Notes under the pieces: model-generated | What the model was told of the DNA's origin: nothing | Databases searched by the model: none | The model's input: the letters and a program-made list of their open reading frames with translations, nothing else | From: an uncultured Gemmatimonadales bacterium | GTDB taxonomy: Bacteria > Gemmatimonadota > Gemmatimonadetes > Longimicrobiales > RSA9 | Assembly (NCBI GenBank): GCA_963798085.1 | Contig: CAWCRS010000008.1 | Coordinates: 192,001-256,000, forward strand | Reading direction: 5' to 3' | Length of the DNA stretch: 64,000 nt | Shown here: positions 43,376-64,000 of the stretch, one piece after another | How positions within the stretch are numbered: the first letter of the stretch is position 1 | How the letters are laid out: every line of letters begins with the position of its first letter | Made by a program: the position numbers and the translations under genes

Positions 43376-44212
43376 TCAGGAACTGCGATCCCACCGACGC
43401 GCGGGAGGCCCGCAGGGCGCCTGCCAGCCTGCCGGGTCGCGCGGCCGTCCTAACTGTCTGTCAGGAGGCGCGCGAACCGTGCGTGGTGCCTGCGCGGTCG
43501 CCCGTCCCTGCGGCCGCTCACCGCGTTGCGGGAACGCAGGCCGGCGCTGGCCGCGCAGCCAGCGCGCGGGTCGCTTGATCAGCTCGGTGCCGAGCGAGCG
43601 GAAGTGGATCAGCGGCGAAGGCGTGCGTACGGACACCGGCCTCGCCTCGCACAGCACGGCGCGCAGCTCTGCCGCGTTCGCGAAGGGTGGCAGCAGGGTG
43701 AAGGCACCACCGATTTCGCGGCCGAAGTGTGCATCCGTGCTGGCGGCGGTCGCCAGTTCCGCGGCTTCCGCCGCATCCCGTGCCAGCCGGTTCCACGCGC
43801 GGACGAAAGCGCGCGCGTTGTGCACCTCCACGATGTCGGCGACTGCCAGCACGTGTGCCGCCCGCTGCATGGCGTGGCGCAGATAGGCGTAAGGGTGCGG
43901 TGCGTAGACCACGCCCCCCTGCTCGCGTATGCGCGCCGCCACTTCCGCGACGGGCAGACCCGCAGGAATCGGCTCGTGCAGGAACAGGCCAATGAGGTCG
44001 GAGCCGTCCGCACAATCGATCTCCTCACCCGGAATGATGAGGTCCGGATCGAGCGCGGCTGCTTCCCACGCGCCCTCCATGCGGTTGTGATCGGTGATCG
44101 CGACGCGGTCGAGGCCGGCAGCACGGGCGCGCCGGACGAGCGTGGCGGGGGAGAGCGTGGAATCCTGTGAGTACCGTGTATGTACGTGAAAGTCGACTCG
44201 AATTCGCTGCAT
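43376..44212 (-). CDS. PHP-domain phosphoesterase
   Basis: DFHVHT, ITDHN, PHP, STDAH. Confidence 0.85.
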   Translation of the reverse strand: MQRIRVDFHVHTRYSQDSTLSPATLVRRARAAGLDRVAITDHNRMEGAWEAAALDPDLIIPGEEIDCADGSDLIGLFLHEPIPAGLPVAEVAARIREQGGVVYAPHPYAYLRHAMQRAAHVLAVADIVEVHNARAFVRAWNRLARDAAEAAELATAASTDAHFGREIGGAFTLLPPFANAAELRAVLCEARPVSVRTPSPLIHFRSLGTELIKRPARWLRGQRRPAFPQRGERPQGRATAQAPRTVRAPPDRQLGRPRDPAGWQAPCGPPARRWDRSS

Positions 44213-44577
44213 GATCCTGATTCGTTCGGGCCGGCCTGCGGCAGCCGGCTTCTCCGTGCTGCTCCTCGTAGTGAGCGTGGGCGATCGAATTCTGCCTGCA
44301 GTATCGGCTCCATACCGCCCACCGTTCAGTCCGGCGCGCTCCTGCGCGCGGGTCGCGAGCGCCGCAGCGATTGCGCTCTCACATATGCACAACCAGCATG
44401 CAGGTTCCGCGCACGGTCACCGCCCGGGCTCCCGGCCACGGCGGCGAAACCGGCGGCGCGGAAGGAGCGTAACGGCATCATTGCACGCCAGAGTAATCAG
44501 GCGACGACGGGTGTGTCATCACCCCGTCGCTGCCGAACACGCACCTGCAGCCCCAATGCAAGGCGAGGAGGTCCTCC

Positions 44578-47343: not shown

Positions 47344-48435
47344 GTGGACCCGATCGCATCCGAGGCCGTTGCCACCCTCACCACCGCCGTGACGTCGCTG
47401 CTGCCGCCTCCGGTGGATCCGTCCGTTCCACACGCCGTACTGGTCACGCCACTGCGCATTGCCACCACTGGGCTGGGCGGTTTCGTGGGTCTGAACCCGG
47501 ACCCCCAGGGTGAGATTTTCGGGCGGCGCATCCGGGCGAGAGTGGACGTGAACGTGGGCGCGTTGACCGCGACCGGACTCGATTCCGCGCTCGCTCACGT
47601 GACCAGCGCGGTGATGACGACGGGTCGCGAAGAGTTGTCGCAGCTCGGAATCCTGAAGCTCGGCGTGCTCGAGCTGGGTCCCCAGCCCGATGCCAGCGCC
47701 GCACCGCCTGCCGCCGCGCGCCGCGCCGTGTCGTTCAATGTGCTGTACGAATTCCTGAAGCTGCCCGTGCAGGCCGGCGGCGTCATCCAGACGATCCCGC
47801 TCGACATCGACAGCACCCTGGCGGTGAACGATCCGCGCGTGCTGCTGCGCGGGCCGTTCCTGCCTCCCTCGTTGGATCTCTTCGAAGTCTTCGACGACAA
47901 CGCGGCCACCACGGCGTCGCCTTCGGCATGGTCTTTCGACACGGCCGACGCGGCCATCATCCAGACGGCAGACATCACGGGTGGCGCAAACGCGCCGACG
48001 CCCGACAAGCCCGGAACGTACTGCGTGCTGCGCACCACGCCGGTGCGTCCACCGCTGCGCGACTTCACCATGGCGGCGGAGGTGCTCACTACCTCGCCGG
48101 GCGGCATCGGCATGGTCTTCCGCTTCGTCGATGTGAACAACTTCTATTTCGCGCTGCTCGACAGCCGTAACGGCTTCCGCATGCTGGGCAAGAAGGTGGC
48201 GGGCGTGTTCGGGGCGCTGCAATCCGGAGGTCTGGATGCGGCGGCGGGTTTCAGCGCGGGCACGCTCGTGCGCGTGCGTCTGGTGGCCCAGGGCGATGAG
48301 TTCCGCCTGCTGATCGACGGTCGCGGCGTGCTCGACGGCCGGGATGATGAGCTGGCGGCGGGCGGGCGCGTGGGTTTCCTGACACGTCATTGCACGGGCG
48401 CGCGCTTCTTCGACCTGATGCTCGTCCGGCTGTAA
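47344..48435 (+). CDS. Putative tail terminator/cap-like domain fused to a ConA/LamG-like beta-sandwich
   Basis: GTG start with GGAG RBS; lies directly before the sheath; C-half GIGMVFRFVDVNNFY...FRLLIDGRGVL...GRVGF...ARFFDL resembles a lectin-like jelly roll. Confidence 0.5.
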   Translation: MDPIASEAVATLTTAVTSLLPPPVDPSVPHAVLVTPLRIATTGLGGFVGLNPDPQGEIFGRRIRARVDVNVGALTATGLDSALAHVTSAVMTTGREELSQLGILKLGVLELGPQPDASAAPPAAARRAVSFNVLYEFLKLPVQAGGVIQTIPLDIDSTLAVNDPRVLLRGPFLPPSLDLFEVFDDNAATTASPSAWSFDTADAAIIQTADITGGANAPTPDKPGTYCVLRTTPVRPPLRDFTMAAEVLTTSPGGIGMVFRFVDVNNFYFALLDSRNGFRMLGKKVAGVFGALQSGGLDAAAGFSAGTLVRVRLVAQGDEFRLLIDGRGVLDGRDDELAAGGRVGFLTRHCTGARFFDLMLVRL

Positions 48436-48467
48436 CGAATCGGCGCCCGTCCGCGGGCGAACCCGTC

Positions 48468-48492
48468 CGCGTCCGGCTGGCTCCCGGACGCG
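48468..48492 (+). other. Intercistronic hairpin upstream of the sheath RBS
   Basis: CGCGTCCGG-ctggctc-CCGGACGCG; no U-tract. Confidence 0.4.
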
Positions 48493-48522
48493 CGGCGATC
48501 ACTCCAGCGTGGGAGGCTGCAC

Positions 48523-49599
48523 ATGGCTGAGACTTTCACTCTTTCCGAGCTGGTCGTACCGGGGACGTACATCCGGGTGTCCGCGGAAGGGCTCATTGGC
48601 GTCGGCGGCATCTCGACCGGGAACATCGGCATTGTGGGAACCGCGGGTACTGTGGACGCCGAGACGCACATCCTCGGCGACTACCGCACGACCGGCGAGA
48701 CATTCGGCGCGTACGACGGCGCCAGCAACGGCAGCGGTACGCTGAATCTCACGCGGGCGCTCGAGATCGCCTACCGCAACGGCGGGCGCACCGTGTTTGC
48801 GCGCGCACTGGCGGCGGGCGCCAATGCGGCCGCGTTCTCCACCGCGTTCGACGAGATCATCAAGGAGGATGTCAACATCCTGATCGCGCCCGAGCTGTCC
48901 ACCAGCGATGCGCTCAGCGTGCTGGGCAGCGCCGTGGAGACGGCGGAGAATGCGGGTCGCGACATGATCGCCGTGGTGGGCTCCAATGCCAGCACCGTGG
49001 CCACCATCAACGGCCAGGTGCCCACCAACGATCGCATTGTCTTCACCGGTCCGGGCATCGTCGCGTTCAATGCGGCGCTGGGCGCCTCGGTCGCGCTCAA
49101 CGGCACCTACAGCGCCGCCGCCGTGGCCGGTCTGCTGAGCACGCTGTCGCCGCAGCAGAGCCCCACTAACAAGGTACTATCGGGTGTGGTGCAGCTGGCG
49201 CGGCGTTTCTCCTATGCGGAGAAGATCCAGCTGCTCAACGGTCGCGTGGCCGTGCTGGAGCAGCGCCAGGGCGTGCGCGTGGTGCGCGGCCTCACCACCA
49301 ATGACGGCGGCTTCCGCCAGATCACTACCCGCCGCATCACGGACTTTGCCAAGGCGGGCATCCGCAAGGCATCCGATCCGTTCATCGGCAAGCTGAACAA
49401 CCAGCGTGTGCGCAAGGCGCTCTACGGCGCCATCGACGGCTTCCTCACCACCATGCTGCTGGACGAGCAGCTCACCGGCTACACGCTCGAGGTCACGGCC
49501 TCGCGCCAGGACGAGATCAATGGCCGCGCGCTGGTGAACGCGGTGCTGCGTCCGACGTTCAGCATCGACTTCGTGGCGGTCACTCTGGTCCTCGAATAG
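48523..49599 (+). CDS. Contractile tail sheath protein (short, 358 aa)
   Basis: N-terminal VPGTYI...IGIVGTA; C-terminal ITTRRITDF...FIGKLNN...LRPTFSIDFVAVTL; GGGAGG RBS. Confidence 0.88.
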   Translation: MAETFTLSELVVPGTYIRVSAEGLIGVGGISTGNIGIVGTAGTVDAETHILGDYRTTGETFGAYDGASNGSGTLNLTRALEIAYRNGGRTVFARALAAGANAAAFSTAFDEIIKEDVNILIAPELSTSDALSVLGSAVETAENAGRDMIAVVGSNASTVATINGQVPTNDRIVFTGPGIVAFNAALGASVALNGTYSAAAVAGLLSTLSPQQSPTNKVLSGVVQLARRFSYAEKIQLLNGRVAVLEQRQGVRVVRGLTTNDGGFRQITTRRITDFAKAGIRKASDPFIGKLNNQRVRKALYGAIDGFLTTMLLDEQLTGYTLEVTASRQDEINGRALVNAVLRPTFSIDFVAVTLVLE

Positions 49600-49613
49600 G
49601 GAGAAACACAGCG

Positions 49614-50108
49614 ATGGCGAATACGCGGGTGTACACGGGGGCAGATGGCTCGATCACACTCTCGGCGGGGCAGGGTGCCGAAGGCGACGCCGCTAACGCG
49701 GTGATCACGGCGTTCGACACCATCTCGGTGGGTCGCGTGCAGAACGTGCGCGTCGAGGTGCAGTCCGCCGTGAAGGCGTACCACGAGATCGGCCAGCGCT
49801 ACGCGACCGAGCTGCGCCCCGGCAACGTCACGGTGCGCGGCACGATCGGCCGCGCCATGATCAACGGCGCCATGCTGCGTCTGCTGCTGGGCGAGGCGGC
49901 CAATGGCCGGCCCAAGGCGAGCTGGGCGCAGCCTTCCTTCAACATCACGCTGCTCGCGGAAAACGCGGCGCAGCCGGGCGTGCGCAACACGCTCACGCTG
50001 CACGATGTGAAGCTGGAGTCGTGGGTCTACGCCATGCCCGAAGATGAATTCCTGGCGGAAGCGCTCACCTTCCAGGCGCTCTACGTCACCGTGGCGGATG
50101 AAGGCTGA
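49614..50108 (+). CDS. Tail tube protein
   Basis: 164 aa directly after the sheath; beta-rich VGRVQNVRVEV...HEIGQR...GNVTVRGTI...LTLHDVKLESW...EALTFQA. Confidence 0.75.
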   Translation: MANTRVYTGADGSITLSAGQGAEGDAANAVITAFDTISVGRVQNVRVEVQSAVKAYHEIGQRYATELRPGNVTVRGTIGRAMINGAMLRLLLGEAANGRPKASWAQPSFNITLLAENAAQPGVRNTLTLHDVKLESWVYAMPEDEFLAEALTFQALYVTVADEG

Positions 50109-50581
50109 TGCTGAGCGCCGAGGAATTGCTCGCGGGCAGCGGGCTGGCGTACGAGGTGCGCCTGCCGCCGGAGGTATTGCGGCCGGGCGCGGGTGATGCG
50201 GCGAACGCGGGCGCGCAGACGGTGAAGCTGCGCCCGCTCACCGTGGCCGATCTCCAGCTGGTCACGCGCGCCGCCAGGGAGAGCGACACGCTGGTCGCCA
50301 CGCTCATGGTCCAGCGCGCGCTGATCGAACCCGCCATGACGGTCGTGCAGGTGGCGGGCATGCACGTGGGACTGCTGGAATTCCTGCTCGGCGAAGTCAT
50401 GCGCATCAGCGGCATGAGCGTGACCGAGCCCGAATTGCAGTCCGCGGTGGAGGCGCCGCTGGCGAAGGCGGCGCACGTGCTGGCGAAGGAGTTCGGCTGG
50501 ACACCGCCACAGGTCAGTGAGCTGACGCTGGGCCAGATCATGGTGCACCTGCAGATGCTGCAGCAGGAGGCATCACCTTGA
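50108..50581 (+). CDS. Tail assembly chaperone-like protein
   Basis: Position after the tube; VKLRPLTVADL, and C-terminal LAKEFGWTPPQVSELTLGQI; TGATG coupling. Confidence 0.7.
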   Translation: MLSAEELLAGSGLAYEVRLPPEVLRPGAGDAANAGAQTVKLRPLTVADLQLVTRAARESDTLVATLMVQRALIEPAMTVVQVAGMHVGLLEFLLGEVMRISGMSVTEPELQSAVEAPLAKAAHVLAKEFGWTPPQVSELTLGQIMVHLQMLQQEASP

Positions 50582-51624
50582 GCCGCACGCCGCGCGAAGG
50601 CGGGTCCGAATCCATGCATATGGGCAACGCCGTGCTGCTGGCGCACGTCCGCCACGTGCGTTCGCTGCTGGCGCGGCTGCGCCAGCCGGACGCGCCCCTC
50701 TGGCGCCTGGCGGGGGATGCCGAGGCGCACCTGCGCGTGCTGACACCGCAGTTCGCGGCGCTCGAGGTGGACCCGTTCGCTGGCCTGCCGGCCGTGGCGT
50801 ACGAACAGCCCGTTGAGGGCGACGACGCACCCGCCCCCGTCCGGCGCGAAGTGGAACCGCCGTTGCCGCCGCCGCGTCCGGCGACGTCTTTGGAAGCAGC
50901 GGCCGAGCCTCTGCGTTCGGCGAACCCGGCCCGCGCCGGCGAGGTCGCGCCGAAGGGCCAACACGGTGTCAGAGGTGCCGTGCTGCCACTCTCGCCTCGC
51001 CGGCGGTCGCGCGCAACGGCGGCGGGCTCGGCGGGCAGTCGCGCGCACGCGCTCGGCGCCATCGAACCGCCCGCTCCTCCGGCTGCAGCCGCCCGGGCCG
51101 ACGCAGCAGGACCGCCAGCCGTGGCCGCTAATGTCGTGTCAGTAAGCGTGGAGAACGCGGGCGTTGTCGCGCAGCCGATGGATCTGGGTGCGCTGGCGGC
51201 GCGGGTGCTGGCGCAGGTCGCGGCAGAGAAAGCGCGCACGGCGCCGGCCGGGCCGGGCACGCGCGATCGACTGACACGGGCTGCGCCGCGGTCCGCGAGC
51301 GGGCCTGCTGCAGAGGCGGCGCTGCGCGGCGCCACGCTGCGCCCCGCCGTTCCCCGCAGCGTCGCGCGCGACAGGCGAGCCGGCAATGTACCGTCGGCCG
51401 ACGCGAGTCCCCGGGCAGCGCTGCTGCCATCATTGCCCGATGCCGCGCGCCCTGTGGCGGCGCCGCTGGCCGCACCTGTCGACGGGGCTGCGCGCGAGCC
51501 CGGGTTCTACTTCGACCCGCTCGCGCCGCGTGCGGCGGTGGCGGACGAGGAAGAGCTGCTGGCGGAGCGGGTCGCGCGCGTGCTGCACGAGCAGGCCCGC
51601 CGCCAGGGAGTGGACCTGACGTGA
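50578..51624 (+). CDS. Ala/Pro/Arg-rich low-complexity protein with ordered-looking termini
   Basis: Fills the gap between coupled genes; ends EELLAERVARVLHEQARRQGVDLT; start uncertain. Confidence 0.55.
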   Translation: MSRTPREGGSESMHMGNAVLLAHVRHVRSLLARLRQPDAPLWRLAGDAEAHLRVLTPQFAALEVDPFAGLPAVAYEQPVEGDDAPAPVRREVEPPLPPPRPATSLEAAAEPLRSANPARAGEVAPKGQHGVRGAVLPLSPRRRSRATAAGSAGSRAHALGAIEPPAPPAAAARADAAGPPAVAANVVSVSVENAGVVAQPMDLGALAARVLAQVAAEKARTAPAGPGTRDRLTRAAPRSASGPAAEAALRGATLRPAVPRSVARDRRAGNVPSADASPRAALLPSLPDAARPVAAPLAAPVDGAAREPGFYFDPLAPRAAVADEEELLAERVARVLHEQARRQGVDLT

Positions 51625-51657
51625 CGCGCGGACTGCGCCGCCGTCCGGACTGAAGCC

Positions 51658-54600
51658 ATGGCCACGGTACTCGAGCAGATCCAGGCTGCGCTGTCCGGCA
51701 ATGACGCGAACGTTCGCGTCAGCGCGCAGGCCGGCAACCTGCAGGGCATCGGCGGCCTGGTCGCGGGTCTCGCGAAGAGTCCGCCCGCGCAGATCACGAA
51801 CCTGCAGCGCGCCTTCGCCGCGCTCGAGCTGCCCGACTTCCCCCTGGGCGATTTCGTCTCGCGCATCAGTGACGCGCGCGCGGCCCTGCCCACGGATGCG
51901 GGGGGCGCGCTCAGCGGCGTGCTGGGAGATCTCTCGAACATCGAGCAGGAGTTCAGCGGCGGCATCGCGTCGTCGCTGGCCAATGCACTCGTCGCCTTCG
52001 AAAAGGTGCAGGCGCTGGCCGACATCCGGTTCCACTGCACGAATGGCGCAGGCAGTGCACCGGCGGGCGGCGGCAGTGCGGGCGGAGCGGGCGGAGCGGG
52101 CGGCGCGGGCGGCGCGAGTGGCTCAGGCGGTGCCGGTGGCACGGGCAGCGCCACGGCGCCGCCGCCCACACCCATGGCGCTCGCGGTGGCGCAGGCTGAC
52201 AGCGTGTTCGACCGACTGCCGGTGCCCTTCGATCTGCGCGCGCTGCTGCGCTTCCTGCACGACAAGACAGCGTTCCGCCGCGAACCGCTGTTCCCGGCGG
52301 TGCTGCCGCTGTTCGACGATCTGCGCGATCCGCTGGACACGCTCATGGTGTGGGAGTCGCTGACACCGGCGCAGGTGCTGCAGCAGATCGCGACGGCGCT
52401 GCAGGATGCGAACACGCATGTACGCACGGGTGTGGAGCGCACGCTGGGTCCGCTGTTCGCCGACCTCGATGGCTTCATGGCCACCATGCCGGCGGCGGAC
52501 CTCGCCCGCATCGCGGACCGCATCACCATCCGTCTGGGCGAGCTGCGCGCCGCGGTGCAGGCCGGCAATGTGGGCGGCACAGGCGGGGCCGTGAGCGAGA
52601 TCGGTGCGCTGCTCGACGAATACGATGCGCTGCGCCCCGCACTGGCGCCTCGCATCAATGCGGTGCCGGCGCTGCGTACACGTCTCGCCGAAGTGGCGGA
52701 GGATCTGGACCTCGGCATGGCCAGCATGGTCTCGATCCTGAAGCCGGGCGGCGGCGCGCTCACTCGCCTGGCCATGCCGCGCTTCGAATGCGCTGAACCG
52801 GCTGCAGATCTGGGCGCAGGGCATGGCCGACTGGCTGCACAATGTGGCCGGCGCCATTGACCTCTCCGCCATCCAGGGCCCCATCGGCACCATCGCCGGC
52901 CGCGTCGAGTCCGTGGCCGAGGGGCTGCAACAGGGCATTACCACGATCACGGTGGACGTGCAGAGCGTGTTCACGACCGTGCAGTCCGTGATCGACACGC
53001 TCGATCCTGCGCAGCTGCAGGCGGAGGTGCAGGCCGCAGTCCAGCGTTTCCGCGACGAGATCATTGCGCGTGTCAGCGCCCTGGTCGGCCCGGCGCGCGC
53101 GGCGGTGCTTCAGGCTGTGACCGCGATCGATCAGGCCGTCGGTGCATTCGATCCGGGCAATGTCATTGCGGCCATCTCCGCTGCCATCAATGCGCTGGCC
53201 GGCGTGCTGGGCGATGGTCCCATCGGCCAGGCCATGAGTGCCGTGCACGATGGCCTCGAAGCGGTGGCGAAGCAGCTGACGGCGCTCTCCTTCACACCCA
53301 CCGCCGACTCCGTGGTGAGCGTGATCGACTCCCTCCGATCCACGCTCGAGGCCATCGATCCGGCTCTGCTGCCCTCGCCGGCAGCGGATGCGCTCAAGTC
53401 CGCCGCATCCGTGCTGCCGGGCGATCTCGAGCCCATCACGGATCCCATCATCGACAGCTTCGGCGAGATCGTGGACAGCGGGCCGACCCCGGTTCTCGAG
53501 CAGGTGCGCGATGCGCCCGCGCAGTTGCTCGAGGCCGTGCGCAGCTTCGATCCCGAATCGCTGGTCGGCGATCAGCTGACGGGACCGTTCAATAGCGTGC
53601 TGCGCTCCATGGAGCAGTTCCGGCCGAGCGATCTGCTGAAGCCAGTGGGCAAGGAGCTGGACGCCTTCAAACAGCAGCTGCGCAAGGCAGCCAGTCCGGG
53701 GCGCGCAGCGCAGGCGCTGCAGGCACCGTTCGACGCGCTGAAGCAGACGCTCGCGAACTTCGATCCCAATGCACTGGTGCAGCCGCTGCAGGGGGCGCTC
53801 GCAACCGTGCGCGACGGCCTGCTCAAGGTTGTGCCGGTGGATGAGACGTTCGCCATCATCGACGAAGGTCTTGCCGCCGTCCAGCGCGTGCTTGACACCA
53901 TGGACGCGGTGGTGCGAGTCCTGCGCCGTGTGCACGAGGCTGCGAATTCGCTCGTCGGTGTGCGCGGACAGCTGGACGCGTGGGTGAACAATGTACTGGC
54001 GCGCGTCGAATGGCATTACGGACACGTCGAGCCTGGTGCCGTTGCTGGACAACCTGCGCACCGCGCTGGATGGCACGCGCGCGTCGGCGATCGGTCCGCG
54101 TTTCGCCGCGGGCACGGCCACGGCGCGTGCTGCGCTCGACAGCGTGAACGGCACGACCCGTCTCGCGTCGCTGATCCAGGCGCATCGTGCCATCCCGCGG
54201 CCCGCGCTGCAGGCGCTGCCGGCCTCGGCGCAGAAGACCGCACTGCAGGCGGTGCTGGATCGCTTCGATCCACTGCTGCCCGCGTTCGGTTCGCCATGGC
54301 AGCAGCTGGGCGCGCTGCGCCAGGGACTCGTCGAGGGTGACGCCGAGCTGCAGGCGCTGCTGCCCGTGTGGGACGATCGCTTCCACTTCGCGGGCGGCTC
54401 ACTCGACGAGCTGCGTCAGGCCCAGCCCACCACGGCGCAGTTGCGCGCGTTCGCGCAGCAGGCGCTCGAGACGCACTTCGTCGAGCCCATTGCCAACGCC
54501 CTGTCGTTTCTCGATCCGGCAAGAGAGTTCCTCGATGCTCTGCTGACTCCCTTCGAGGATCTGATCACCACGCTGCACGCGCGCCTGGCCGCACTGCTCA

Positions 54601-55121
54601 CGGGCCCGGCATCACTCACGGCGATTCGCGATGGGCTGGGCCGCATCGACGACCTGGTGAAGGGACTGGACCTCGAGTTCCTGCGCACCAGCCTGCACAC
54701 GCTGTTCGACGACATTCGTCACAAGCTCGACGACGTGAGCCCGCAGAAGCTGGCGGAAGCGCTGGACAGGAGCTTCGCGGCGGTGCTGGACGGCATCACG
54801 ATCGATCTGATCCTGCCGCCCGCCAATGTGAAGCAGATCGACAAGACATACAGCGACGTGGTGGAGAAGCTGCGGTTGCTCGACCCGTCGCACATCGTGA
54901 ACAATGTGGTGAAGCCGCTCTTCGAGCAGAAGGTGGTGCCGCTCGTCGACAAGTTCGACGTCTCGCCCTTCATCGACACGATCAACGATCGCCTGGGTTC
55001 GCTCGACGATGAGCTGCGCGCGGAAATCGGGCATGTGAATCAGGCGTACATCAAGCTGCTCGCGGCACTGCCCTCCGGCAGTACGCCGAGTGCCAGCGTG
55101 TCCGTCTCGGTAGCCGCATGA
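51658..55121 (+). CDS. Large helical-repeat protein A1 (~1150 aa; tape-measure/apolipoprotein-like); frameshifts ~52780 and ~54011
   Basis: Three ORF pieces align end to end with the intact paralog 58217..61669. Confidence 0.8.
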
Positions 55122-55146
55122 GCAGACGAGCGGCAGGGCGGTGCGC

Positions 55147-57615
55147 ATGGTGATGGGCGAAGTGCTGACGCAACCGCAGCGCATGCGACGCGCAACCGTC
55201 ATGGATCCGGGCATTGCCCTGATCAATGACCTGACCAGCCTGGCCACACGACTCGCGCAGGACGCGGAACAGAGCGCTCAGCTTGCGCAGGTTGCACGCA
55301 GTGCGCTGGAAGACGCAGTCCGCACACTGGTGCAGCAGCGGCTGGGAGCGCTGAAGTCGGTATTGCCGAAGCTGGCGGACTGGCTGCTGCGCGTGCTGCG
55401 CGCGACCACCGGCATCGGGCCCGAGCTGATCCCCACGTCTTCCCCCGCGGGTGTGCTGTCTCTGATCAGCCAGCTCATCGACACGATGGCGCAGGCGGCG
55501 CAGAACGGAAATGCCGCGCGCATTCAGCCGTACGTCGCCGAGCTGCTGGGCATCGTGCAGCACGATCTGGGGTTGAGCCTGCCCGCGCTCGAGACTGCCT
55601 TCTGGGGCGTGATCGACTCCATCATTGCACGTCTCGAGGCACTGCCGCTCGAGGCGGATCGCCGCGAGCGCGAGAACCGGCTGGACACGATTCGCGCACT
55701 GCGCCGCATGCGCCGGCTGGTACGCGGCCGGTTCCCGCTGCCCGCACTGGATGCCGATCGCATAGCTGATGCTCTGGCGGCAACGCTGCGCACCATCGAC
55801 GCGGCCGCGCTGGGCCGCGCGGCGCAGTGTGTGGCCCAGGCGATCGAGAAAGTAGCCGATGCGGGCCAGGCCATCGAGCAGCTGGTGCCGCTCGGCGCGC
55901 TGACCGGGTTCCGCAGCCTGGGCGCGGCTGCCGCGGTGGCCAGTGGGGAGACCTACTGCTGGTACGCCAGCTGGCTGTATGAGGAGGACGTGATCATCAA
56001 TGCGGCGGGCACGGAGATCCGGCGCGGCGACACCGTCATTGCCAGCGGCACGGGCCTGACCTTCGCCAGCATCCCCGACTTCACGACGGCCACGCCACAC
56101 TACACCTTCAACTGCGTCAGCCTCGCCACCATGGAGACGCTGACCAACGTCGTGTTTGTGCTGGCCGACGCCATCATCGTGGTGTGCCATCTGGTGTCGA
56201 TCGAAACTGGCGACGTCGCTTCCAATGCCCTGAATGTGGGCGCCTTCGGCTTCCTGGGCGTCATGGGCAAGCTGGTGGGCAGGAGTCCGCTCGCCTCCAG
56301 CGGTGTCGAGGACTGGGTCTACCCCCTGGCGGCCTCGTTCGCGGGCTCGTTCCAGGGTATTCACACGAAAGCGTCGGGCGGCAACATCTTCCTCATGTGG
56401 GTGACGCTGTTCCTGCCCGACTTCATCGAGGCGGTCATCTACAAGCAGGTCTCGCTCATTGCCCGCGACCTGGTGCTGTCGCTGCTGACACTGATCAACT
56501 ACGACGGGCCGCTCGAGTCGTCCGGCTCACCCGATACGCGCCCGCTCAACCGCATTCACATCGACGGCGTGGCCTGGGTGGGCGAGTGGCTGGGCAGTCT
56601 GGTATTCATGACGTTCTATCCCCGCGAGGAGTACGCGCAACCCTTCGCCTCGGGCGGGCACGCGGCCAAGTTCTTCCTGTTCTGGGACCTGTTCCTTAAC
56701 AACCTGTTCTACGTGCTGGGCCGGCTGGTGGGCTGCATCCTGGGCATGTCGGTGGCGCAGGTGTTCGACTTCGACACATGGGTGAAGCCCATGCCGCTCA
56801 AGCTGCTGCTGCTCAATCCGCTCATGTTCATTGTGAGCCTGTACATGGACAAGGAAGGGGACACGAAGGACGGACATTACAACCCGACCGGTGCGGAATA
56901 CGCCGGTTACCCGGACAAGGCGTCGTCGCCCTATCAACTGCCGTTCCCGAAGGACAACACGTACTACCTGGTGCAGGGCAACCAGGGATTCTTCAGTCAC
57001 CACCACCTCAATTTCGATCAGCAGTACTCGTACGACTTCTCCATGGACCAGGACGATCCCATCCTGGCCAGCCGCCCGGGCACGGTCGTCGATTATTTCG
57101 ACTGGATCAAGGACAACACCAATCCGGACACAACGGATATGACTGCGGCGACGACGGAAGCGACCGCGTCCGGCTTCCTCGTACCCGGCCAGACCACGTC
57201 CGACAGCTGGAACTTCATTGCCATCCGCCATGATGTGGACGATGCGGGCGCCGCGCTCCCGCCGGATAACACGCACGACAAGGCGGCGGGCGGCAGCGTG
57301 GTGACGACGTACGCGATCTACGGTCACGGGCGGAAGGGCAGTGTGCGCGATGCATTCCAGGCGAGGGGCGTGGCCGCCAACGCGATCATCGGTACGAAAG
57401 TCAAGCAGGGCCAGCGCATCATGCGCTCCGGTGACACGGGCGTGAGCTTCAACAATCACCTGCACATCATGGTGCAGGAAGGGCCGGCGAGCACGACGGC
57501 GCCGCCGGTTTCGCGGGGCGCGCTGTCGCAGCCGACGCTCCCGTTCGTGTTCAAGGACGCGGGCGTGCCAAAGCACCTGGACTGGTACGAGTCGAGTGTG
57601 ACGGAGGTAGTCTGA
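55147..57615 (+). CDS. Protein B1: helical N-domain + multi-TM region + M23-like peptidase
   Basis: QGNQGFFSH...YSYDF, ILASRPGTV, VKQGQRI, SGDTGVSFNNHLH; several hydrophobic segments mid-protein. Confidence 0.8.
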   Translation: MVMGEVLTQPQRMRRATVMDPGIALINDLTSLATRLAQDAEQSAQLAQVARSALEDAVRTLVQQRLGALKSVLPKLADWLLRVLRATTGIGPELIPTSSPAGVLSLISQLIDTMAQAAQNGNAARIQPYVAELLGIVQHDLGLSLPALETAFWGVIDSIIARLEALPLEADRRERENRLDTIRALRRMRRLVRGRFPLPALDADRIADALAATLRTIDAAALGRAAQCVAQAIEKVADAGQAIEQLVPLGALTGFRSLGAAAAVASGETYCWYASWLYEEDVIINAAGTEIRRGDTVIASGTGLTFASIPDFTTATPHYTFNCVSLATMETLTNVVFVLADAIIVVCHLVSIETGDVASNALNVGAFGFLGVMGKLVGRSPLASSGVEDWVYPLAASFAGSFQGIHTKASGGNIFLMWVTLFLPDFIEAVIYKQVSLIARDLVLSLLTLINYDGPLESSGSPDTRPLNRIHIDGVAWVGEWLGSLVFMTFYPREEYAQPFASGGHAAKFFLFWDLFLNNLFYVLGRLVGCILGMSVAQVFDFDTWVKPMPLKLLLLNPLMFIVSLYMDKEGDTKDGHYNPTGAEYAGYPDKASSPYQLPFPKDNTYYLVQGNQGFFSHHHLNFDQQYSYDFSMDQDDPILASRPGTVVDYFDWIKDNTNPDTTDMTAATTEATASGFLVPGQTTSDSWNFIAIRHDVDDAGAALPPDNTHDKAAGGSVVTTYAIYGHGRKGSVRDAFQARGVAANAIIGTKVKQGQRIMRSGDTGVSFNNHLHIMVQEGPASTTAPPVSRGALSQPTLPFVFKDAGVPKHLDWYESSVTEVV

Positions 57616-57619
57616 TCGC

Positions 57620-58213
57620 ATGAAGATCAAACCGATGCTCGGCGACTGGGAGGTGCCTCACATTGCAGGCATCGAGACGCTCGAGCGCCGCGAGCTGGCG
57701 GAGCTGGAGATTCCCGGGCGCACGGGCAGCCTGTTCCAGGACCTGAACGCCGCGCCCACGCGCATTGCCATTCGCGGCAGCCTCTTCGGCGATGCGAACC
57801 GCGATGACTTCCTGCAGCAGGTGCGCGACAAGTTCCGCGCAGGCGAGCCGGTCACGTTCGTCGCCGACATCATTACCGCGACTGAGGTGCAGTACGTCCT
57901 CATCGAAACCATGCATTTCGCGGAGAGCGGTGTTGCGCCCGATGAGACCAGCTACTTCCTGGTGTTGCGCGAGAGTCCGCCGCCGCCACCGCCACCGGAC
58001 CCACTGGGCGGCCTCGATGCGGGGCTGCTGGATCAGGCGGGCTCGCTGCTCGACACGGTGACGGGCGCGCTCGATGCCCTCGACGCGCTGGCCAACATTC
58101 CCGACCTGCAGGATCCCACGCCACCGCTGCGTGGCATTCTGGACGGTGTGTCCGGCGCGCTCGATGGACTGGGCGGCGTGACCGGCTCCATCAGCGATCT
58201 CTTCGGCAGCTGA
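57620..58213 (+). CDS. Tube-initiator/hub-like protein (Mu gpN N-domain / P2 gpU-like) with helical tail
   Basis: ELEIPGRTGSLFQDL...IAIRGSL...RAGEPVTFV...VLIETMHFAE...YFLVLRE, then poly-Pro and LD/G-rich helices. Confidence 0.6.
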   Translation: MKIKPMLGDWEVPHIAGIETLERRELAELEIPGRTGSLFQDLNAAPTRIAIRGSLFGDANRDDFLQQVRDKFRAGEPVTFVADIITATEVQYVLIETMHFAESGVAPDETSYFLVLRESPPPPPPPDPLGGLDAGLLDQAGSLLDTVTGALDALDALANIPDLQDPTPPLRGILDGVSGALDGLGGVTGSISDLFGS

Positions 58214-58216
58214 CGC

Positions 58217-61200
58217 ATGGCGACCGTCTCCGCGCAGCTCGACGCCAGCATGGCCGGCAATGATGTGTCGGCACGCGTGGGCACGCAGATCACGCAGCTG
58301 AACGGCATCGCGACGCAGCTGGCCACGCTGATCCAGCATCCGCCCGGTGCTGTGAACCAGCTGTTGCGCGCGTTCGGCGATCTGCCGCTGCCCGAGTTCC
58401 AGGTCGCGGCGCAGCTGTCCACCCGGCTGATCGAGATGCGCGGCGCCGTGCCCACCGATGTCAGTGGACTGCTGCGTGGCGTGCTCGATGGCATCGCCCA
58501 ACTGCAGACCGACTTCGGCGGTGCACTGGGTGGCCAGCTGGCGAAGGCGCTGCTGCTGATCGAGCGACTGCACGCGCTGACGCAGATCGACCTGCGCTGT
58601 CTGGGTGGCGCTTCGTCGAGCACGGCGACACTGACGGCGGGCGGGGCAGCGGGCGCAACTGGCGCGAGCGGCGTGGCGGCGGCGACCGGCACGAGCGCGG
58701 CCACTGCACCCTCGCCGTCCGCCACGCAGGACACGGTCGCACGTGCTAACACGATCCTCGATGCCATACCGCAGCCGCCCGGCATCGAGGGTGTGCTGCG
58801 CTGGGCGCACAGCGGCACCGTGATCGAACGCAATGAGCCGCTGCTGCCCGCCGTGATCCCGGTCTGGGATGATCTGCGCGACCCCGTGGATACGCTGATC
58901 ACGTGGGACACCATGACACCGGCGCAGCTGGGCGTCGAGCTGACCACGTCGCTCACCGACACGGCCGCGTTCCTGCGCGAGACGCTGGCACGCGAGCTGG
59001 AGCCGCTGGCCGCGGACATCAGCGCGCTGCTGACGCCGCTGCCGCAGGCGGATCTCACGCGCATTGCGGATCGGCTGACCGCGCGTCTCGTTGCGATCGG
59101 TGCTGCAGTGCACGCCGGCAACCTCAGCGGCATGAGTCCGGCCGCGACGGAAGTGCACGCGCTGCTCGATGAGTACAGCACATTGCAGGCGACACTGCCC
59201 GTCACGCTCGCGACCGACGCGACGCAGCTGCGGGGCCGGCTGGCCGAGCTGGCGGATGATCTGCATGAAGGCTGCTGCCACGCGATCTCGATTCTGCGTC
59301 CGGGCGGCGCGGTCCTCATCAATCTTCCGGCCGGCCTCGAGGCCAATGCGCTGGCGGACCTGCGCAACTGGCTCACCGGCGTTTCCGACTGGCTGGAAAA
59401 TGTGCTGAGCGCCGTCGATCTGGACGCGCTGCAGGCGCCCATCAGGCAGCTGGCGAGTGGTGCGCAGGGTGTGGCCGCTTCGCTGGATGAAGCCCTGGCC
59501 ACGGTCGTGGTGCAGGTGCAGAGCCTGTTCCAGCAGCTGGAATCGCTCATCGATGCGGTCGACATCGCCGCTATAACGACCAGCGTGCAGACCGCGATCA
59601 CGCAGTTCCGCACCGAGGTGGTGCAGCGCATCACGGGTGCGCTCGCTCCTGCGCGCACGGCGATCGAACAGGCCGTTGGCGCACTCGCCGCTGCGGTCAA
59701 TGGTTTCGACCCCGCCGACATTGTGGCCGCGCTGCACGATGCCATTGACCGGGTGGCGGGCGTGCTGCAGGACCCGGGCGTGACCGCGGCGATCGGCCAG
59801 ATCAAAGGTGTGATCGACACCGCCACGCAGCAGGTGCAGTCGCTTTCCTTCACGCCCGTGACCGATCAGGTGATTGCCGTGATCGATGCGCTGAAAGGGA
59901 AGGTGCAGGAGATCGACCCGGCGCAGCTGCCCGATGCCGCAAAGGCGGCGTTAGCGGCGGCCGCGCTGGTGCTGCCCTCCGATCTGCAGCCCATCACGGA
60001 CCCGATCGTGGTGGATTTCAGCGGTCTGGTGGACAGCGGACCCGTGCCCGTGCTGGAGCAGGTGAAGCAGCAGCCGGCGAAGCTGCTCGAGCAGGTGACG
60101 CGCTTCGAGCCGTCGAAGCTGATCGGTGATACACTGTCGCAGCCGTTCCAGAAGCTGCTGCGCGACCTGGATGCGTTCCGGCCGAGCAAGCTGCTCAAGC
60201 CGCTGGGCAGGGAGCTGGACACCTTCAAGCAGACGCTGCTGCGCAGCGCCTCGCCCAGTCGTGCGCTGCAGCCTCTGGCCGGTCCCTTCGGCGAAGTGAC
60301 GGCCGCACTGGGCCGGCTGGATCCGACACAGCTTACCAAGCCGATCGACGACGCACTGGCCGAGGCCGGCAAGAAGCTGTCAGACCTGCTGCCCGTGCAG
60401 GACCTGTTCGATGCGATTGATGCAGTGCTCGGCGCCGTACGCCGTTTTCTCGACAGCTATGACGCCATGCTCGCGCTGCTGCGCCGCCTGCACGGGCTCG
60501 CCGATGCCCTGGCGAATGCGCCCGCCGACCTGGTCGCCTGGATCAACCGCGTGCTGGACAGGATCGAGCAGGTGCCGGATCCCGCGGCCGTCAATCTGGG
60601 CGTCGTAGCCCTGCGTGATGCGGTCGATGCGACGCGCGGCGCCGCCATCGGGGCGCGCTTCAATGCGTTGACCGCGACATCGCGGGCCGCCTTGGACAGT
60701 GTCGATGGCGGGAACCGGCTGTCCGCGCTGATCACGGCGTATCACGGCGTTTCGCGACCCGCGCTCGAGGCATTGCCCGACTCGCCGACGCGCACATCGC
60801 TGCTTGCGGCACTGGACCGCTTCGATCCGCTGACCCCCTCGTTCGGTGCGCCCTGGCTGGCATTGGGTCAGTTGCGCAGCGCAGTGGGCGGCGCCCGCGC
60901 GGCGCTCGAGGCGCAGCAGAGCCAGTGGGACACCGACTACCACTTCGCGGGCAGTGCGCTCTCCGATCTGCGACGCGATTCCGCCACACCGGCCGAACTG
61001 CGCGCGTTCGCGCAGGAGCTGCTGGACGCGCAGCTGGTGCAGCCGATCGCGGCCGTGAGTGCATTCCTGGAGCCGGCGCGCGTGGTCTTCGGCAGCATTC
61101 TCGACGGCGTGGAAGATCTGCTGGGCCGCGTGCGCAGCCGCCTTGATGCGCTGCTGCTCGGGCCGCAGTCGGTGCAGGGTCTGCGCGATGCCATGGGTGA

Positions 61201-61669
61201 CATTGTCGCCGACGTGACCAGCCTGAACGTCGATTTCCTCCCTGACAGCCTCAACACGCTGTTTGGCGCGGTGCGGGCCAGACTCGAGGCCATCTCCCCC
61301 GCAGCACTGGGCAAGCCGCTGGATGACGTGTTCAAGGCCATCCTGGACACCTTGAGCCTCGAGGTCGTGCTGCCGAAAGCGGAGCTGCAGGCGCTGGACG
61401 CCACTTACGAAGCGTTCGTCGCGAAGATCCGTCCGCTCGATCCGGGCCAGCTCGTGATCGAAGCCGTGCAGCCGGTCTGGGATCAGACTGTGCTGCCCCT
61501 GCTGGCGGCGTTCGATCTCACGCCCGTGATCGAGGCGCTGATCGAGAAGCTGCATTCCCTCGATGACAGTCTGCGCGCGGAGCTGGAACGCGTGAACGGC
61601 TCGTACCAGCAGCTGCTCGCCGCCATCCCGTCGGGGGATGTCAGCGTCAGCGCGAGTATCTCGCTATGA
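58217..61669 (+). CDS. Large helical-repeat protein A2 (1150 aa), paralog of A1
   Basis: Intact ORF; shares MATV...GND, DDLRDP.DTL..W...TPAQ, LSFTP..D, DLxPITDPI, DSGPxPVLEQV, LDRFDPLxPxFGxPW with A1. Confidence 0.85.
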   Translation: MATVSAQLDASMAGNDVSARVGTQITQLNGIATQLATLIQHPPGAVNQLLRAFGDLPLPEFQVAAQLSTRLIEMRGAVPTDVSGLLRGVLDGIAQLQTDFGGALGGQLAKALLLIERLHALTQIDLRCLGGASSSTATLTAGGAAGATGASGVAAATGTSAATAPSPSATQDTVARANTILDAIPQPPGIEGVLRWAHSGTVIERNEPLLPAVIPVWDDLRDPVDTLITWDTMTPAQLGVELTTSLTDTAAFLRETLARELEPLAADISALLTPLPQADLTRIADRLTARLVAIGAAVHAGNLSGMSPAATEVHALLDEYSTLQATLPVTLATDATQLRGRLAELADDLHEGCCHAISILRPGGAVLINLPAGLEANALADLRNWLTGVSDWLENVLSAVDLDALQAPIRQLASGAQGVAASLDEALATVVVQVQSLFQQLESLIDAVDIAAITTSVQTAITQFRTEVVQRITGALAPARTAIEQAVGALAAAVNGFDPADIVAALHDAIDRVAGVLQDPGVTAAIGQIKGVIDTATQQVQSLSFTPVTDQVIAVIDALKGKVQEIDPAQLPDAAKAALAAAALVLPSDLQPITDPIVVDFSGLVDSGPVPVLEQVKQQPAKLLEQVTRFEPSKLIGDTLSQPFQKLLRDLDAFRPSKLLKPLGRELDTFKQTLLRSASPSRALQPLAGPFGEVTAALGRLDPTQLTKPIDDALAEAGKKLSDLLPVQDLFDAIDAVLGAVRRFLDSYDAMLALLRRLHGLADALANAPADLVAWINRVLDRIEQVPDPAAVNLGVVALRDAVDATRGAAIGARFNALTATSRAALDSVDGGNRLSALITAYHGVSRPALEALPDSPTRTSLLAALDRFDPLTPSFGAPWLALGQLRSAVGGARAALEAQQSQWDTDYHFAGSALSDLRRDSATPAELRAFAQELLDAQLVQPIAAVSAFLEPARVVFGSILDGVEDLLGRVRSRLDALLLGPQSVQGLRDAMGDIVADVTSLNVDFLPDSLNTLFGAVRARLEAISPAALGKPLDDVFKAILDTLSLEVVLPKAELQALDATYEAFVAKIRPLDPGQLVIEAVQPVWDQTVLPLLAAFDLTPVIEALIEKLHSLDDSLRAELERVNGSYQQLLAAIPSGDVSVSASISL

Positions 61670-61694
61670 CGGTGCGCGGCCGGGAGGCGTGGTC

Positions 61695-64000
61695 ATGGTG
61701 ATGGGCTCCGTGCTGGTGCAGCCGCAGCGCGTGCGCCGCGGCCGGCACGCGGATCCGGGGATCTCGCTGTTCACGGATCTGTTCAGCGTGATTACTCGCC
61801 TGTTGACGGACGCGAAACTGGGCGGCCGGCTGGGCGACATCGCCGGCGAGGCGCTCGTCGCCAATTTCCAGCGCATTGCGACGGAGCGCGTCGCGCGCAT
61901 CGCGCAGGCGGGCCCGCACGCGGTGCAGCGGCTGCTCGATCTGCTGCGCGCGATAACCGGTGTCAGTGCGACGGTTCGCATCGCGGCGCCGGCGGACGCG
62001 CTGGAACTCGCGCGTCAGCTGCTGGACCACTTCGCGGATGGTGTGGAAGGGGTTACCGCGGTGCGTCTGCGCCCGCATGTCGCGGCATTTCTGGACATTC
62101 TCGAGACCGACCTGGGCTTCAGCCTGGTGCAGGCGGAGGCCGAGTTGTGGCGCATCGTCCACGACATCATCGACCGCCTCGAAGCCGAGCCGCCGGAGCC
62201 GAACGTGCGCGCCCGCGAGAATCGCCTCGAGGTCATCTGTCTGCTGCGGCGCATCCTGCGCGTACTCTCGGGTTTCACCATGCCGCGCATCAATGCGGAT
62301 GGGCTCGCCAGCCTCATGGCGTCGCTGCTGGCCGGCCTCAGGGCGCCGGCGTTTGCCGCCCGCCTGCGCTGCGTGGCGCGCGCACTGGAGAGCGCGGCGC
62401 GTACCGGCCAGAGCGTGACCGAGCTGGTCGCGATCGGCTCGTTCGCGGAGTTCCGCAGCCTGGGCGCGGCCGCCGCGGCGGCGGAGCAGCAGGAACGCTT
62501 CTGCTGGTACGCCACGTGGGTGCTGGGGAAGAACACGGTGATCAGCAAGGACCGGTCAGAGATCCGCTTTGGTGGCAAAGTCGTCATGACTGGCGAGAAC
62601 CTCGGCCTGGCCGATATCCCCGAGTTCCGCGACACGAACACAGTCGACGGCAAGCCGTTCTTCTACACGTACGCCAGGGTCGATCTGGAGGCGCTCGACA
62701 CCATCGCGTTCGTGAGTGCCGTGGCGGCGGACGCACTCATTGTGCTGTTCCACACGATCTCAATGGAGGAAGGCGACTTCATCGCCAACCTCGTAAACAT
62801 GCAGTTTGCCATGCTGGCGGGCATTTACAAGGCGGCCGCCGCCAGGCCCATGCTGCCGCTCTGGGCCGAGAACTGGCTCATTCCAATGGGCATCACGATT
62901 CCGGCCTCGCTCGAAGGCATCCACACGCACGCCGCCCCGGCGCAGGGCGCCATTCTGTGGCTCACGCTTTTCGGACCGGATTTCGGCGAGGAACGGTTGT
63001 ACCGGGGGTACGGCCTGACCGCGCGCAACGCGCTGTTATCCATCCTCACACTGGCGAATCACAGGAACGCGCCCAACGGCGTGCCGGAGAATCACAAGGT
63101 CGCGGCCGGCCTCAACGACCTGCTGGGCTTCGTGGTCAGCATGCTGTACAGCCTGAAGGTGCCACGCGACGAGTGGGGCCTGGTCAATACACAGGTGACG
63201 CCGCGCGACTTCAATGCGGGCCTTGTCTTCGGCTGGGTGCTGGGCTTCGCATCGCTGGGCTGGCTCACCGGTCGCGTGGTGGGCGGGCTGCTGGCGTGGG
63301 CGATCACGCGCGAGGTGGCGCCCTGGGCATGGTTCGGCCGGCGCTGGTGGTCCCTCTTCGAGCACTGGCTCTGGTACGCCAGCTTCCTGTACTGGTGGAT
63401 CGAGGGCGACACCGACGGTGGCCATTACAACTCGGCCGGCGGACCGGCGTACGCCGGCTATCCGCCGAAGGAGAACTCGCCGTACACACTGCCCTACGTG
63501 GCTGGAAACTCGTGTTATGTGGGCCAGGGCAACATGGGCCTGTTCAGCCACAACAAGCTGAATGGCGACCAGACGTATGCCATCGACTTCGCACTGGATC
63601 AGGACGAGAAGATCCTGGCCGCGCGCGCCGGCACCGTCGTCGACTGGTTCGACTGGGTCACCGACGACGAGAACATCAGGACGGCATGGCCTGACGCGGC
63701 CGCCGCGGACAATCCCACGGGTGTGCAGCCGGTCGTGCTGCCGGATGGAACATCCCAGACCACATCCTCGGTCAAGAATTTCATCCTCGTGCGTCACGAC
63801 CGCGACGAAGACGGCAACCTGCTGCCCGTGGGCACGTTCAATGACACGCACGATCGGGGCGCGGGCAACACGCCGACACGCACGTACACGGCGTACCTGC
63901 ACGGTCGCAAGGGAAGCATCCGCGAAGCGTTTGCCGCACGCGGCATTACGCCCGTCAACATCATGGGTCAGGTACTGCTGCGCGGGCACTGGATCATGCG
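61695..64000 (+). CDS. Protein B2, paralog of B1 (helical + multi-TM + M23-like); runs off window end
   Basis: Own translation (not in ORF track): GGGAGG RBS, MVMGSVLVQPQRVRR...FRSLGAAAA...CWYATW...GQGNMGLFSH...YAIDF...HGRKGSIREAFAARG, start and end motifs in the same frame. Confidence 0.82.
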   Translation, partial: MVMGSVLVQPQRVRRGRHADPGISLFTDLFSVITRLLTDAKLGGRLGDIAGEALVANFQRIATERVARIAQAGPHAVQRLLDLLRAITGVSATVRIAAPADALELARQLLDHFADGVEGVTAVRLRPHVAAFLDILETDLGFSLVQAEAELWRIVHDIIDRLEAEPPEPNVRARENRLEVICLLRRILRVLSGFTMPRINADGLASLMASLLAGLRAPAFAARLRCVARALESAARTGQSVTELVAIGSFAEFRSLGAAAAAAEQQERFCWYATWVLGKNTVISKDRSEIRFGGKVVMTGENLGLADIPEFRDTNTVDGKPFFYTYARVDLEALDTIAFVSAVAADALIVLFHTISMEEGDFIANLVNMQFAMLAGIYKAAAARPMLPLWAENWLIPMGITIPASLEGIHTHAAPAQGAILWLTLFGPDFGEERLYRGYGLTARNALLSILTLANHRNAPNGVPENHKVAAGLNDLLGFVVSMLYSLKVPRDEWGLVNTQVTPRDFNAGLVFGWVLGFASLGWLTGRVVGGLLAWAITREVAPWAWFGRRWWSLFEHWLWYASFLYWWIEGDTDGGHYNSAGGPAYAGYPPKENSPYTLPYVAGNSCYVGQGNMGLFSHNKLNGDQTYAIDFALDQDEKILAARAGTVVDWFDWVTDDENIRTAWPDAAAADNPTGVQPVVLPDGTSQTTSSVKNFILVRHDRDEDGNLLPVGTFNDTHDRGAGNTPTRTYTAYLHGRKGSIREAFAARGITPVNIMGQVLLRGHWIM

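Follow-up and report, generated by a model that had tools for sequence, protein, structure and literature searches.

The DNA analysed here (the window) comprises 64,000 nucleotides from an uncultured Gemmatimonadales bacterium, positions 192001-256000 of contig C8 in genome G000 (6.2 Mb, 12 contigs, 90% complete). It holds the first part of an operon of ~32 kb (C8:239344-271357, 15 kb of it past the window end). With a probability that we place slightly above even, this operon specifies a host-encoded headless contractile injection system (CIS) of its own lineage, derived from a myovirus tail separately from the Afp/PVC-type extracellular contractile injection systems (eCIS), with a large protein, A, as carrier and cargo on the spike side. 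We give even chances to the broader proposal that it represents a further independently domesticated class beside type VI secretion systems (T6SS), tailocins and eCIS, spread over about a dozen phyla, unseen by published eCIS screens, and lacking both the ATPase of eCIS and T6SS and the tailocin lysis cassette, in which A, a new helical protein of 1150 aa tied to the tube initiator, carries interchangeable cargo of 80-160 kDa (M23 hydrolase, Rhs, protease, propeller) at the spike. The hallmarks of the class are an ATPase-less, lysis-less core, an invariant A and a variable slot after A. The family is apparently undescribed, with an eCIS-like way of working, yet it is a member of no family tested. 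A first-pass annotation of the window had suggested a domesticated, possibly undescribed CIS class. Our analysis supports this suggestion; neither head genes downstream nor a fit to a described eCIS subtype was found.

Gene content of the operon

The genes are as follows, with coordinates in the window unless preceded by C8.

47344-48435, +: cap, with a tail-terminator-like N-terminal domain of ~150 aa and an optional lectin-like beta-sandwich
48523-49599, +: contractile sheath, 358 aa (PF04984 and PF17482 above cut-off; phrog_279 E 3e-24)
49614-50108, +: tail tube, 164 aa, not of the Afp1/5 (T4 gp19) type
50108-50581, +: probable tail assembly chaperone, 157 aa, from its position after the tube
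50578-51624, +: low-complexity protein with a conserved C-terminal motif, in the tape-measure slot
51658-55121, +: A1, paralog of A2, located by tblastn of A2 in three overlapping frames
55141-57615, +: B1, with a helical N-terminal bundle, a helical middle and a C-terminal M23 peptidase fold
57620-58213, +: tube initiator, 197 aa, with a Mu N-terminal / gpU-like domain, a poly-Pro linker and a helical tail
58217-61669, +: A2, an all-helical protein of 1150 aa with proline-punctuated amphipathic repeats of 23-24 residues
61695-64000 plus 205 bp past the window end, +: B2, 38% identical to B1 and 51% to B3, with a weak PF01551 match
C8 256213-258663, +: B3, third B paralog
C8 258667-259794, +: hub, starting 3 bp after B3
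C8 259791-260402, +: gp5-like spike, separate from the hub
C8 260412-260795, +: PAAR
C8 ~260792-261298, +: gp25
C8 261295-263061, +: gpJ
C8 ~263027-265830, +: propeller protein in the gpI position (the gpI label reflects position only), frameshifted near its end
C8 265829-267331, +: F500, fibre-like
C8 267331-269268, +: F645, fibre-like
C8 269282-271357, +: F691, fibre-like

Every gene named in the first-pass annotation, from cap to B2, is present on the + strand where it had been placed, in one co-oriented operon. A1 had been read as one ORF; its three frames cover A2 residues 1-370, 376-814 and 799-1140 at 41-48% identity. The baseplate and spike genes that had been thought possible beyond position 64000 do follow there, after B3, together with the three fibre-like genes. 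From sheath through PAAR the gaps between genes are -4 to 33 bp. The proteins encoded past the window end match PF05954, PF04717, PF05488, PF10934/PF04965, PF04865 and PF12836 in Pfam, as well as NF033848, TIGR01644 and NF041539 (these three below cut-off), and PHROGs baseplate families.

The system is capsid-less, as had been claimed. Reading of the downstream contig gave no head or terminase genes, and ORF, Pfam and PHROGs scans detected no capsid, portal, terminase or integrase gene in the operon or the adjoining genes. PF03237, the one terminase family searched, is absent from the 90% complete genome. No holin, endolysin or other lysis gene occurs in the operon or at its ends, and ORF reading with Pfam and profile scans gave no AAA+ ATPase gene within the 32 kb. 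The codon style had also been called host-like. This holds for GC content (0.681 in the operon, 0.678 in the contig) and not for tetranucleotide distance, which exceeds that of 92% of 189 genome windows, a mildly atypical composition.

A conserved cassette in many phyla

We aligned the three B paralogs with 27 of 30 database matches and searched a collection of species genomes with the resulting 30-row alignment; this gave 87 matching stretches, kept as 62 loci. These presumably span about 12 phyla, the assignment of locus titles drawing in part on general knowledge, and include Longimicrobiales, cyanobacteria, Pseudomonadota, Desulfobacterota, Chloroflexota, Actinomycetota, Acidobacteriota, Bacteroidota, Deinococcota, Nitrospirota, Fibrobacteria and UASB270. 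Many of the loci end early, and they are not independent samples, with several each from Thauera, Rubrivivax and Panacagrimonas. In a profile search, B formed 240 clusters at 50% identity with E <= 1e-30. Spread is patchy: the tube profile matches 2 of 401 genomes of the window's own phylum and 9 of 41 Thauera genomes.

All 24 loci that span cap to F645 keep a single gene order: cap, sheath, tube, chaperone, (low-complexity protein), initiator, A, B, hub, spike, PAAR, gp25, gpJ, gpI, F500, F645. Median pairwise identity over these loci is 59% for the sheath and 64% for the tube. Five genomes were extended by 20 kb on each side, and their flanks read by ORF call and BLAST rather than Pfam. F645 is present in all five and is followed by F691 in four; past F691, the flanks share no operon-linked gene.

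These observations bear on the possibility that the operon is a decayed, functionless prophage tail, which we regard as extremely improbable. Frameshifts in A1 and in the gpI-position gene would fit decay, and the nearest relatives outside the family are phage-like contigs. Against it stand the intact, sharply ended cassettes of the same order across phyla, the missing PF03237 terminase, and the results of phage searches: a search of the viral collection gave no B, the sheath is at most 30% identical to those of cultured phages in the best 20 of 30 matches, and the tube matched none of them. The split host ORF pair at C8:273103-275368, just downstream and apparently a single gene, hints that assembly indels produce such frames in this contig; contigs from three runs gave no useful coverage of the A1 breaks.

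Around the present operon the context is that of the host. As had been noted, it starts after a host permease; upstream (window 40227-47013) lie two MacB/FtsX permeases around what we take to be a PHP-like gene, together with a presumed PadR-like regulator, and a host NHL-repeat gene lies downstream. A 167-aa coiled-coil protein built of short near-repeats is encoded at window 39697-40200 on the - strand. In Hahella ganghwensis, a 2931-aa ORF (L074:3170-11965) lies on the opposite strand ~4 kb beyond the operon end. A locus from Ca. Flexifilum (L009:4052-13186) carries A in two pieces and B both fragmented and as one full copy; the 23-kb locus shows none of the family's structural genes, which makes it a possible orphan cargo island.

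The tail core points to myophages

Sheath and tube both place the family apart from eCIS. A 22-row sheath tree, built quickly and with long branches, puts the family with phage sheaths; the broad outline is the same in a tree of 34 rows. Forcing nine family and six eCIS sheaths into one clade lowered lnL by 62 and was rejected (p-AU 7.1e-5). Solved sheaths score at most 33 bits, the best being that of R2 pyocin. PF18906 was matched weakly by 20 of 29 members of the tube family, PF06841 by none of the 29. The tube aligned with a myovirus-like tube at an hhalign probability of 99.3%, versus 0.2% for the genome's own Afp1-like tube. The tube HMM gave 0.1 bits or less to the five of seven eCIS tubes listed; the other two were not among the matches listed. 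gpJ matches six phage or diffocin wedges, the match to diffocin TRI-2 being weak.

A scan of the viral collection with the sheath returned six contigs, of which four have the cassette with A and two, L168 and L171, are phage-like. Their sheaths are 41% (L168) and 34% (L171) identical to the family's. L168 (G406) is a 38-kb myovirus-like fragment whose record stops before any head genes. Its tail is the nearest outside relative of the family, and it has no close cultured phage. Tube and initiator of L168 are clearly homologous to ours; for the initiator, the family HMM gave E 1e-19. The L168 initiator in turn matches PF06995/PF07157/PF19512, and a fused initiator from Bacteroidota (L041) matches PF07157. 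The 197-aa initiator itself has no Pfam match, LysM included. Neither A nor B is present in L168, which has a neck gene and, in the low-complexity slot, a true tape measure of 1125 aa. We infer from these sequences that a myovirus tail was domesticated, losing head and neck, replacing its tape measure, and gaining A and a cargo slot.

The remaining core genes are less distinctive. For the cap, an Atlas search gave phage terminators PF23961/PF22756 at scores of 0.85-0.87, a lead only, and its profile matches a levanase carbohydrate-binding module (E 0.002). Complete cap homologs measure 148-161 aa (10 of 30) or 350-372 aa (20 of 30). Homology of the cap to the L168 protein in the terminator position was rejected, at an hhalign probability of only 0.2%. 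The chaperone is conserved in 37 of the 62 loci and has a homolog at the same position in L168. Pfam, PHROGs and profile scans gave no family match for it or for the low-complexity protein. Most loci have, between chaperone and initiator, an ORF whose C-terminal end is similar, and this slot measures 937-1442 bp in 35 loci; the equivalent slot of L168 and Mu holds a true tape measure. The C-terminal motif of the low-complexity protein gave no significant link to the L168 tape measure, 48 of 500 shuffles scoring as high, and we did not retain homology between the two.

The genome provides its own control, a second, classical eCIS at G000:C1:80828-104405 (L174, L081, L085), with a 743-aa sheath, a PF06841 tube that is the sole PF06841 match in the genome, and an ATPase with a Walker A motif. 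Its cap-like protein is presumably of the DUF4255 type. Used singly as a query, the C1 ATPase found nothing in 159 loci and their flanks at E 1e-5. The C1 cap-like protein likewise found nothing there, and the operon has no DUF4255 match. Among plasmid records, 132 match the C1 sheath, including Serratia and Streptomyces clusters; 24 match the window's sheath, all Bacillota by genus and at most 32% identical in the best 20.

That the family belongs to a known eCIS subtype, or to a cluster catalogued without a name, is thus very unlikely and largely refuted: tube, ATPase and cap are not those of eCIS, and the joint sheath clade was rejected. The first-pass annotation had placed the system outside the described subtypes, and sheath, tube and gene content all do fall elsewhere. 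Favouring a subtype, the accessible text of PMC6899500 describes hub and spike as split in subtypes IIa-c and mentions unnamed subtype-specific genes in lineage II. The source data of PMC12923769, in the part available, mention Thauera 12 times; the two mentions seen are eBAP3 fibres, not tied to any locus. On the other side, the accessible data of PMC8213781 give H. ganghwensis DSM 17046 as ecis=0, although its locus L034 has the operon. In the same data M23 accounts for 6 of 22,287 domains of the eCIStem set and is depleted. The eCIStem operon of Thauera K11, as far as the available record goes, has 12 listed accessory genes, none sized like the A (~1170 aa) or B (~908 aa) of Thauera. Our literature search by title and start of abstract, with subscription journals outside it, found no description of the present system.

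Protein A, protein B and the slot between A and hub

Of 49 complete A ORFs, 40 are 1131-1194 aa long and nine are fragments or miscalled starts; the median identity of A is 28%. Its 23-24-residue repeats extend over residues 425-725. The AF2 model of A2 consists of helices only (pLDDT 75.9, pTM 0.44), with blocks at pLDDT 90-97. No meaningful fold match was obtained in the PDB or among viral models (all listed TM(query) <= 0.08), and Atlas returned two unnamed clusters at 0.88-0.89. Matches of A to Baculo_PEP_C and apolipoprotein were rejected as generic amphipathic helices. The C-terminal part of Mu N gave 6.6 bits, a lead only and too little for homology, which we rejected. In two Bacteroidota loci (L041 and L043), initiator and A are fused into one protein of ~1350 aa.

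B has a helical bundle (residues 1-250), moderately hydrophobic helices (328-571) and a C-terminal M23 fold; the AF2 model of B1 has pLDDT 81.9. Residues ~577-823 match M23/LytM folds at Z 8-10.4, and the putative zinc ligands H620, D632, H729, H773 and H775 are invariant in 30 of 30 alignment rows. Of 129 long B representatives, 95 have both halves of the M23 site by a crude motif search. B1, B2 and B3 are mutually 38-52% identical, and their Pfam M23 scores lie below the curated cut-off. From this modelled fold, B is a probable cell-wall-cutting M23 enzyme. Its helical bundles had no clear structural match in a whole-model search, in which they were not folded alone. A complex prediction of A (425-1140) with B2 (1-245) gave no answer, with a score of 0.00. 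A common C-terminal extension of ~100-460 aa occurs in 19 of 150 B representatives (among them P0144, P0157, P0161, P0163-P0165 and P0171-P0173); the 16 that were scanned gave no Pfam match for it. The idea that such extensions form a toxin library was dropped, as the named additions in 30 scanned proteins amounted to single domains of the OmpA and DUF11 kinds, with some weak matches besides.

A tube-anchored metagenome scan, which did not select for B, kept 80 loci of 352 matches. Fifteen of these extend past A, and the next gene is B in 6 of 15 and an unrelated large protein in 9 of 15. Four distinct contigs of the viral collection also carry A, two with Rhs and two with an empty slot. The contents of the slot other than B were:

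L121, L123: Rhs (L121 assigned by BLAST to L123)
L100, L112, L129: NHL propeller of 1400 aa
L135: S8 protease (subtilase)
L159, L161: unnamed pair
L126: unnamed protein
L169, L170: Rhs, viral-collection contigs
L080, L166: slot empty, hub directly after A, viral-collection contigs

A is present in all tube-anchored and viral-collection loci that reach this point; in the viral collection it was sought only within contigs found by sheath and tube. A constant A beside a polymorphic slot indicates that the slot is an effector or accessory slot, of which A1-B1 and B3 are expansions. We also rejected an obligatory role for B as a subunit, the scan showing it replaced or missing. The doubled A/B genes had been given emphasis in the first-pass annotation. 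The duplication is local to the present genome and was rejected as a hallmark, most relatives having one A and one B (additional B copies also occur in L031 and L039).

In L041:12800-18000 and L043:12600-17620 (Bacteroidota), genes for 263-aa and 1382-aa BNR/propeller proteins, which share a C-terminal region, lie between B and hub. The cargo-less variants carry an unnamed gene of 180-189 aa with Cys/His motifs between a short ORF in the PAAR position and gp25 (L080:10736-11302, L166:10065-10604).

A different view makes A and B parts of a tailocin-like pore former: A would be the tape measure or its ruler half, and B its lytic half, a wall hydrolase bound to the particle that only helps the tube through. 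Killing would occur by membrane depolarisation, in the manner of R-type pyocins. The long A protein is helical, rich in repeats and a weak match to a tape measure (phrog_1272, E 0.009), and its search against viral folds returned rows for minor-tail and tape-measure proteins; phage tape measures phrog_4070 and phrog_10030 weakly match the last domain of B; the L168 tape measure is near A's length; and pyocins too have no ATPase, according to the accessible text of PMC4122934. We nevertheless consider the pore former unlikely. Another gene fills the tape-measure slot and A comes after the initiator. B is swapped for Rhs, propeller or subtilase, or is missing. A is modelled as folded bundles, without a fold match. 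Finally, the present genome has three B and two A copies, and no holin or endolysin gene.

Proposed mechanism

The genes would, on our reading of the sequences, build a working particle. By homology with phage tails, hub, spike and PAAR would nucleate a baseplate with gp25, gpJ and gpI; the initiator would seed the tube, the sheath would polymerise round it, and the terminator would cap it. The low-complexity protein is the probable determinant of length, and F500, F645 and F691 would bind the target. Less securely, A may be anchored beside the initiator, where the tube meets the baseplate, as a carrier or membrane-active sleeve for the product of the next gene.

Tube lumens are ~4 nm wide, and Afp15-type ATPases load lumenal cargo. 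The cargo of the present family (B, Rhs shells, propellers, subtilase) is too bulky for a lumen and so may be loaded near the spike during assembly. Such spike-side loading would explain why a loading ATPase is unneeded. On contraction, the spike would breach the target envelope and the M23 domain of B would cut peptidoglycan cross-links; B-type systems would for that reason most likely strike other bacteria. In the present genome the cargo module appears to have expanded to A1-B1 plus A2-B2-B3.

The target could instead be the producer itself. Cytoplasmic CIS that kill their producer have been described (PMC10066040, PMC12998442), and particles might stay inside as in Streptomyces, fire through the cell's own membrane under stress, and let B open its own wall. 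The lack of a lysis cassette and of an evident immunity gene would suit this, and the mode of action is beyond what sequence by itself can tell. The three conserved fibre-like genes and the optional cap lectin point outward, though; hydrophobicity profiles of F500, F645 and F691 lack any strongly hydrophobic stretch, and polymorphic cargo suits a contest between cells. Self-directed firing therefore seems quite improbable.

Several points weigh against a headless injector with A as carrier. Particle, expression and killing are predictions from the genes, and the M23 activity of B is predicted from fold and ligands. A has no recognisable fold. The identities of A and B correlate at rho 0.65, not above A-gpJ (0.66) or A-hub (0.65), and co-variation of A and B as a special link was rejected. 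The middle region of B is only moderately hydrophobic, with profile peaks of 1.3-1.6. Several non-B cargoes (NHL propellers, Ig-like domains) resemble adhesins as much as toxins. No immunity gene is evident, the B3-hub gap being only 3 bp, and the operon encodes no release mechanism. A1 and the gpI-position gene are frameshifted in the present assembly. The sheath-tree branch that has the family on one side is weakly supported (74 with 22 rows, 44 with 34).

If a headless injector with a spike-side cargo is correct, the family bears on how often such systems arose. Protein-translocating phage-tail elements are said in the available part of PMC4122934 to have arisen once and always with an AAA+ ATPase, and pyocins to lack the ATPase but to have lysis genes. 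The present cassette matches neither description, and other phage stock supplied its tube and sheath, so phage tails probably became cargo injectors on more than one occasion. The family would also offer a possible ATPase-free route for loading large folded proteins. The eCIS screen in PMC6899500, in its accessible text, used Afp1/5 plus Afp11 and counted Afp15 and Afp16 as core; published screens, as far as their available descriptions go, rely on Afp1/5, Afp11 and Afp12-16 profiles. H. ganghwensis has the operon yet was scored eCIS-negative; published screens can thus miss the family. Cultured carriers, including H. ganghwensis and Thauera mechernichensis, make it open to direct testing.

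Comparison with known systems

The family resembles eCIS in being headless, in having sheath, tube, hub, spike, PAAR, gp25 and gpJ, in lacking a lysis cassette, in its patchy spread across phyla, and in a hub and spike split as in subtypes IIa-c. It differs in a tube that is not gp19/Afp1/5-like, a cap that is not DUF4255, a sheath in another clade, the absence of an AAA+ ATPase and of a LysM match, and a large invariant A with a cargo slot amid structural genes. Its single gpJ, PAAR and split spike fit none of the six eCIS subtypes by their descriptions in the accessible text of PMC6899500.

With R-type pyocins and diffocins it shares a headless myophage tail, the lack of an ATPase and the split of hub and spike. 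It differs in having no holin or endolysin and, apparently, no standard tape measure, in its PAAR and large dedicated cargo, and in spanning more than one genus. The P2-type sheath also stands apart: P2 FI scores 9.8 bits with the family HMM, versus 240-287 for L171/L168, and groups with eCIS.

T6SS (i-iii) load large cargo at the spike. Like them, the family has a spike and PAAR, and some relatives encode Rhs beside hub and spike genes. Unlike them, it has a one-piece sheath, gpJ and a terminator; no family match to TssB/TssC, Hcp, the membrane complex or ClpV was found among the operon proteins. A T6SS-like cluster with three VgrG-like genes and one Rhs-like gene, as read from translations, is present elsewhere in the genome (G000:C4:62349-95000), which seems to hold three kinds of contractile system. 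The available part of PMC6899500 states that eCIS and T6SS rarely co-occur.

The C-terminus of B has a fold like that of the M23 peptidases LytM, LasA, the phi29 tail enzyme (3csq) and the cyanophage A4 ejectosome protein (9k2v), with His...Asp and HxH ligands in common. Unlike in these peptidases, the fold sits behind ~570 residues of helical bundles. L168 and Mu share with the family the order terminator, sheath, tube, chaperone, [tape measure], initiator, hub, spike, gp25, gpJ. The family is without neck and head genes, has the low-complexity protein in the tape-measure slot, and places A and its cargo after the initiator.

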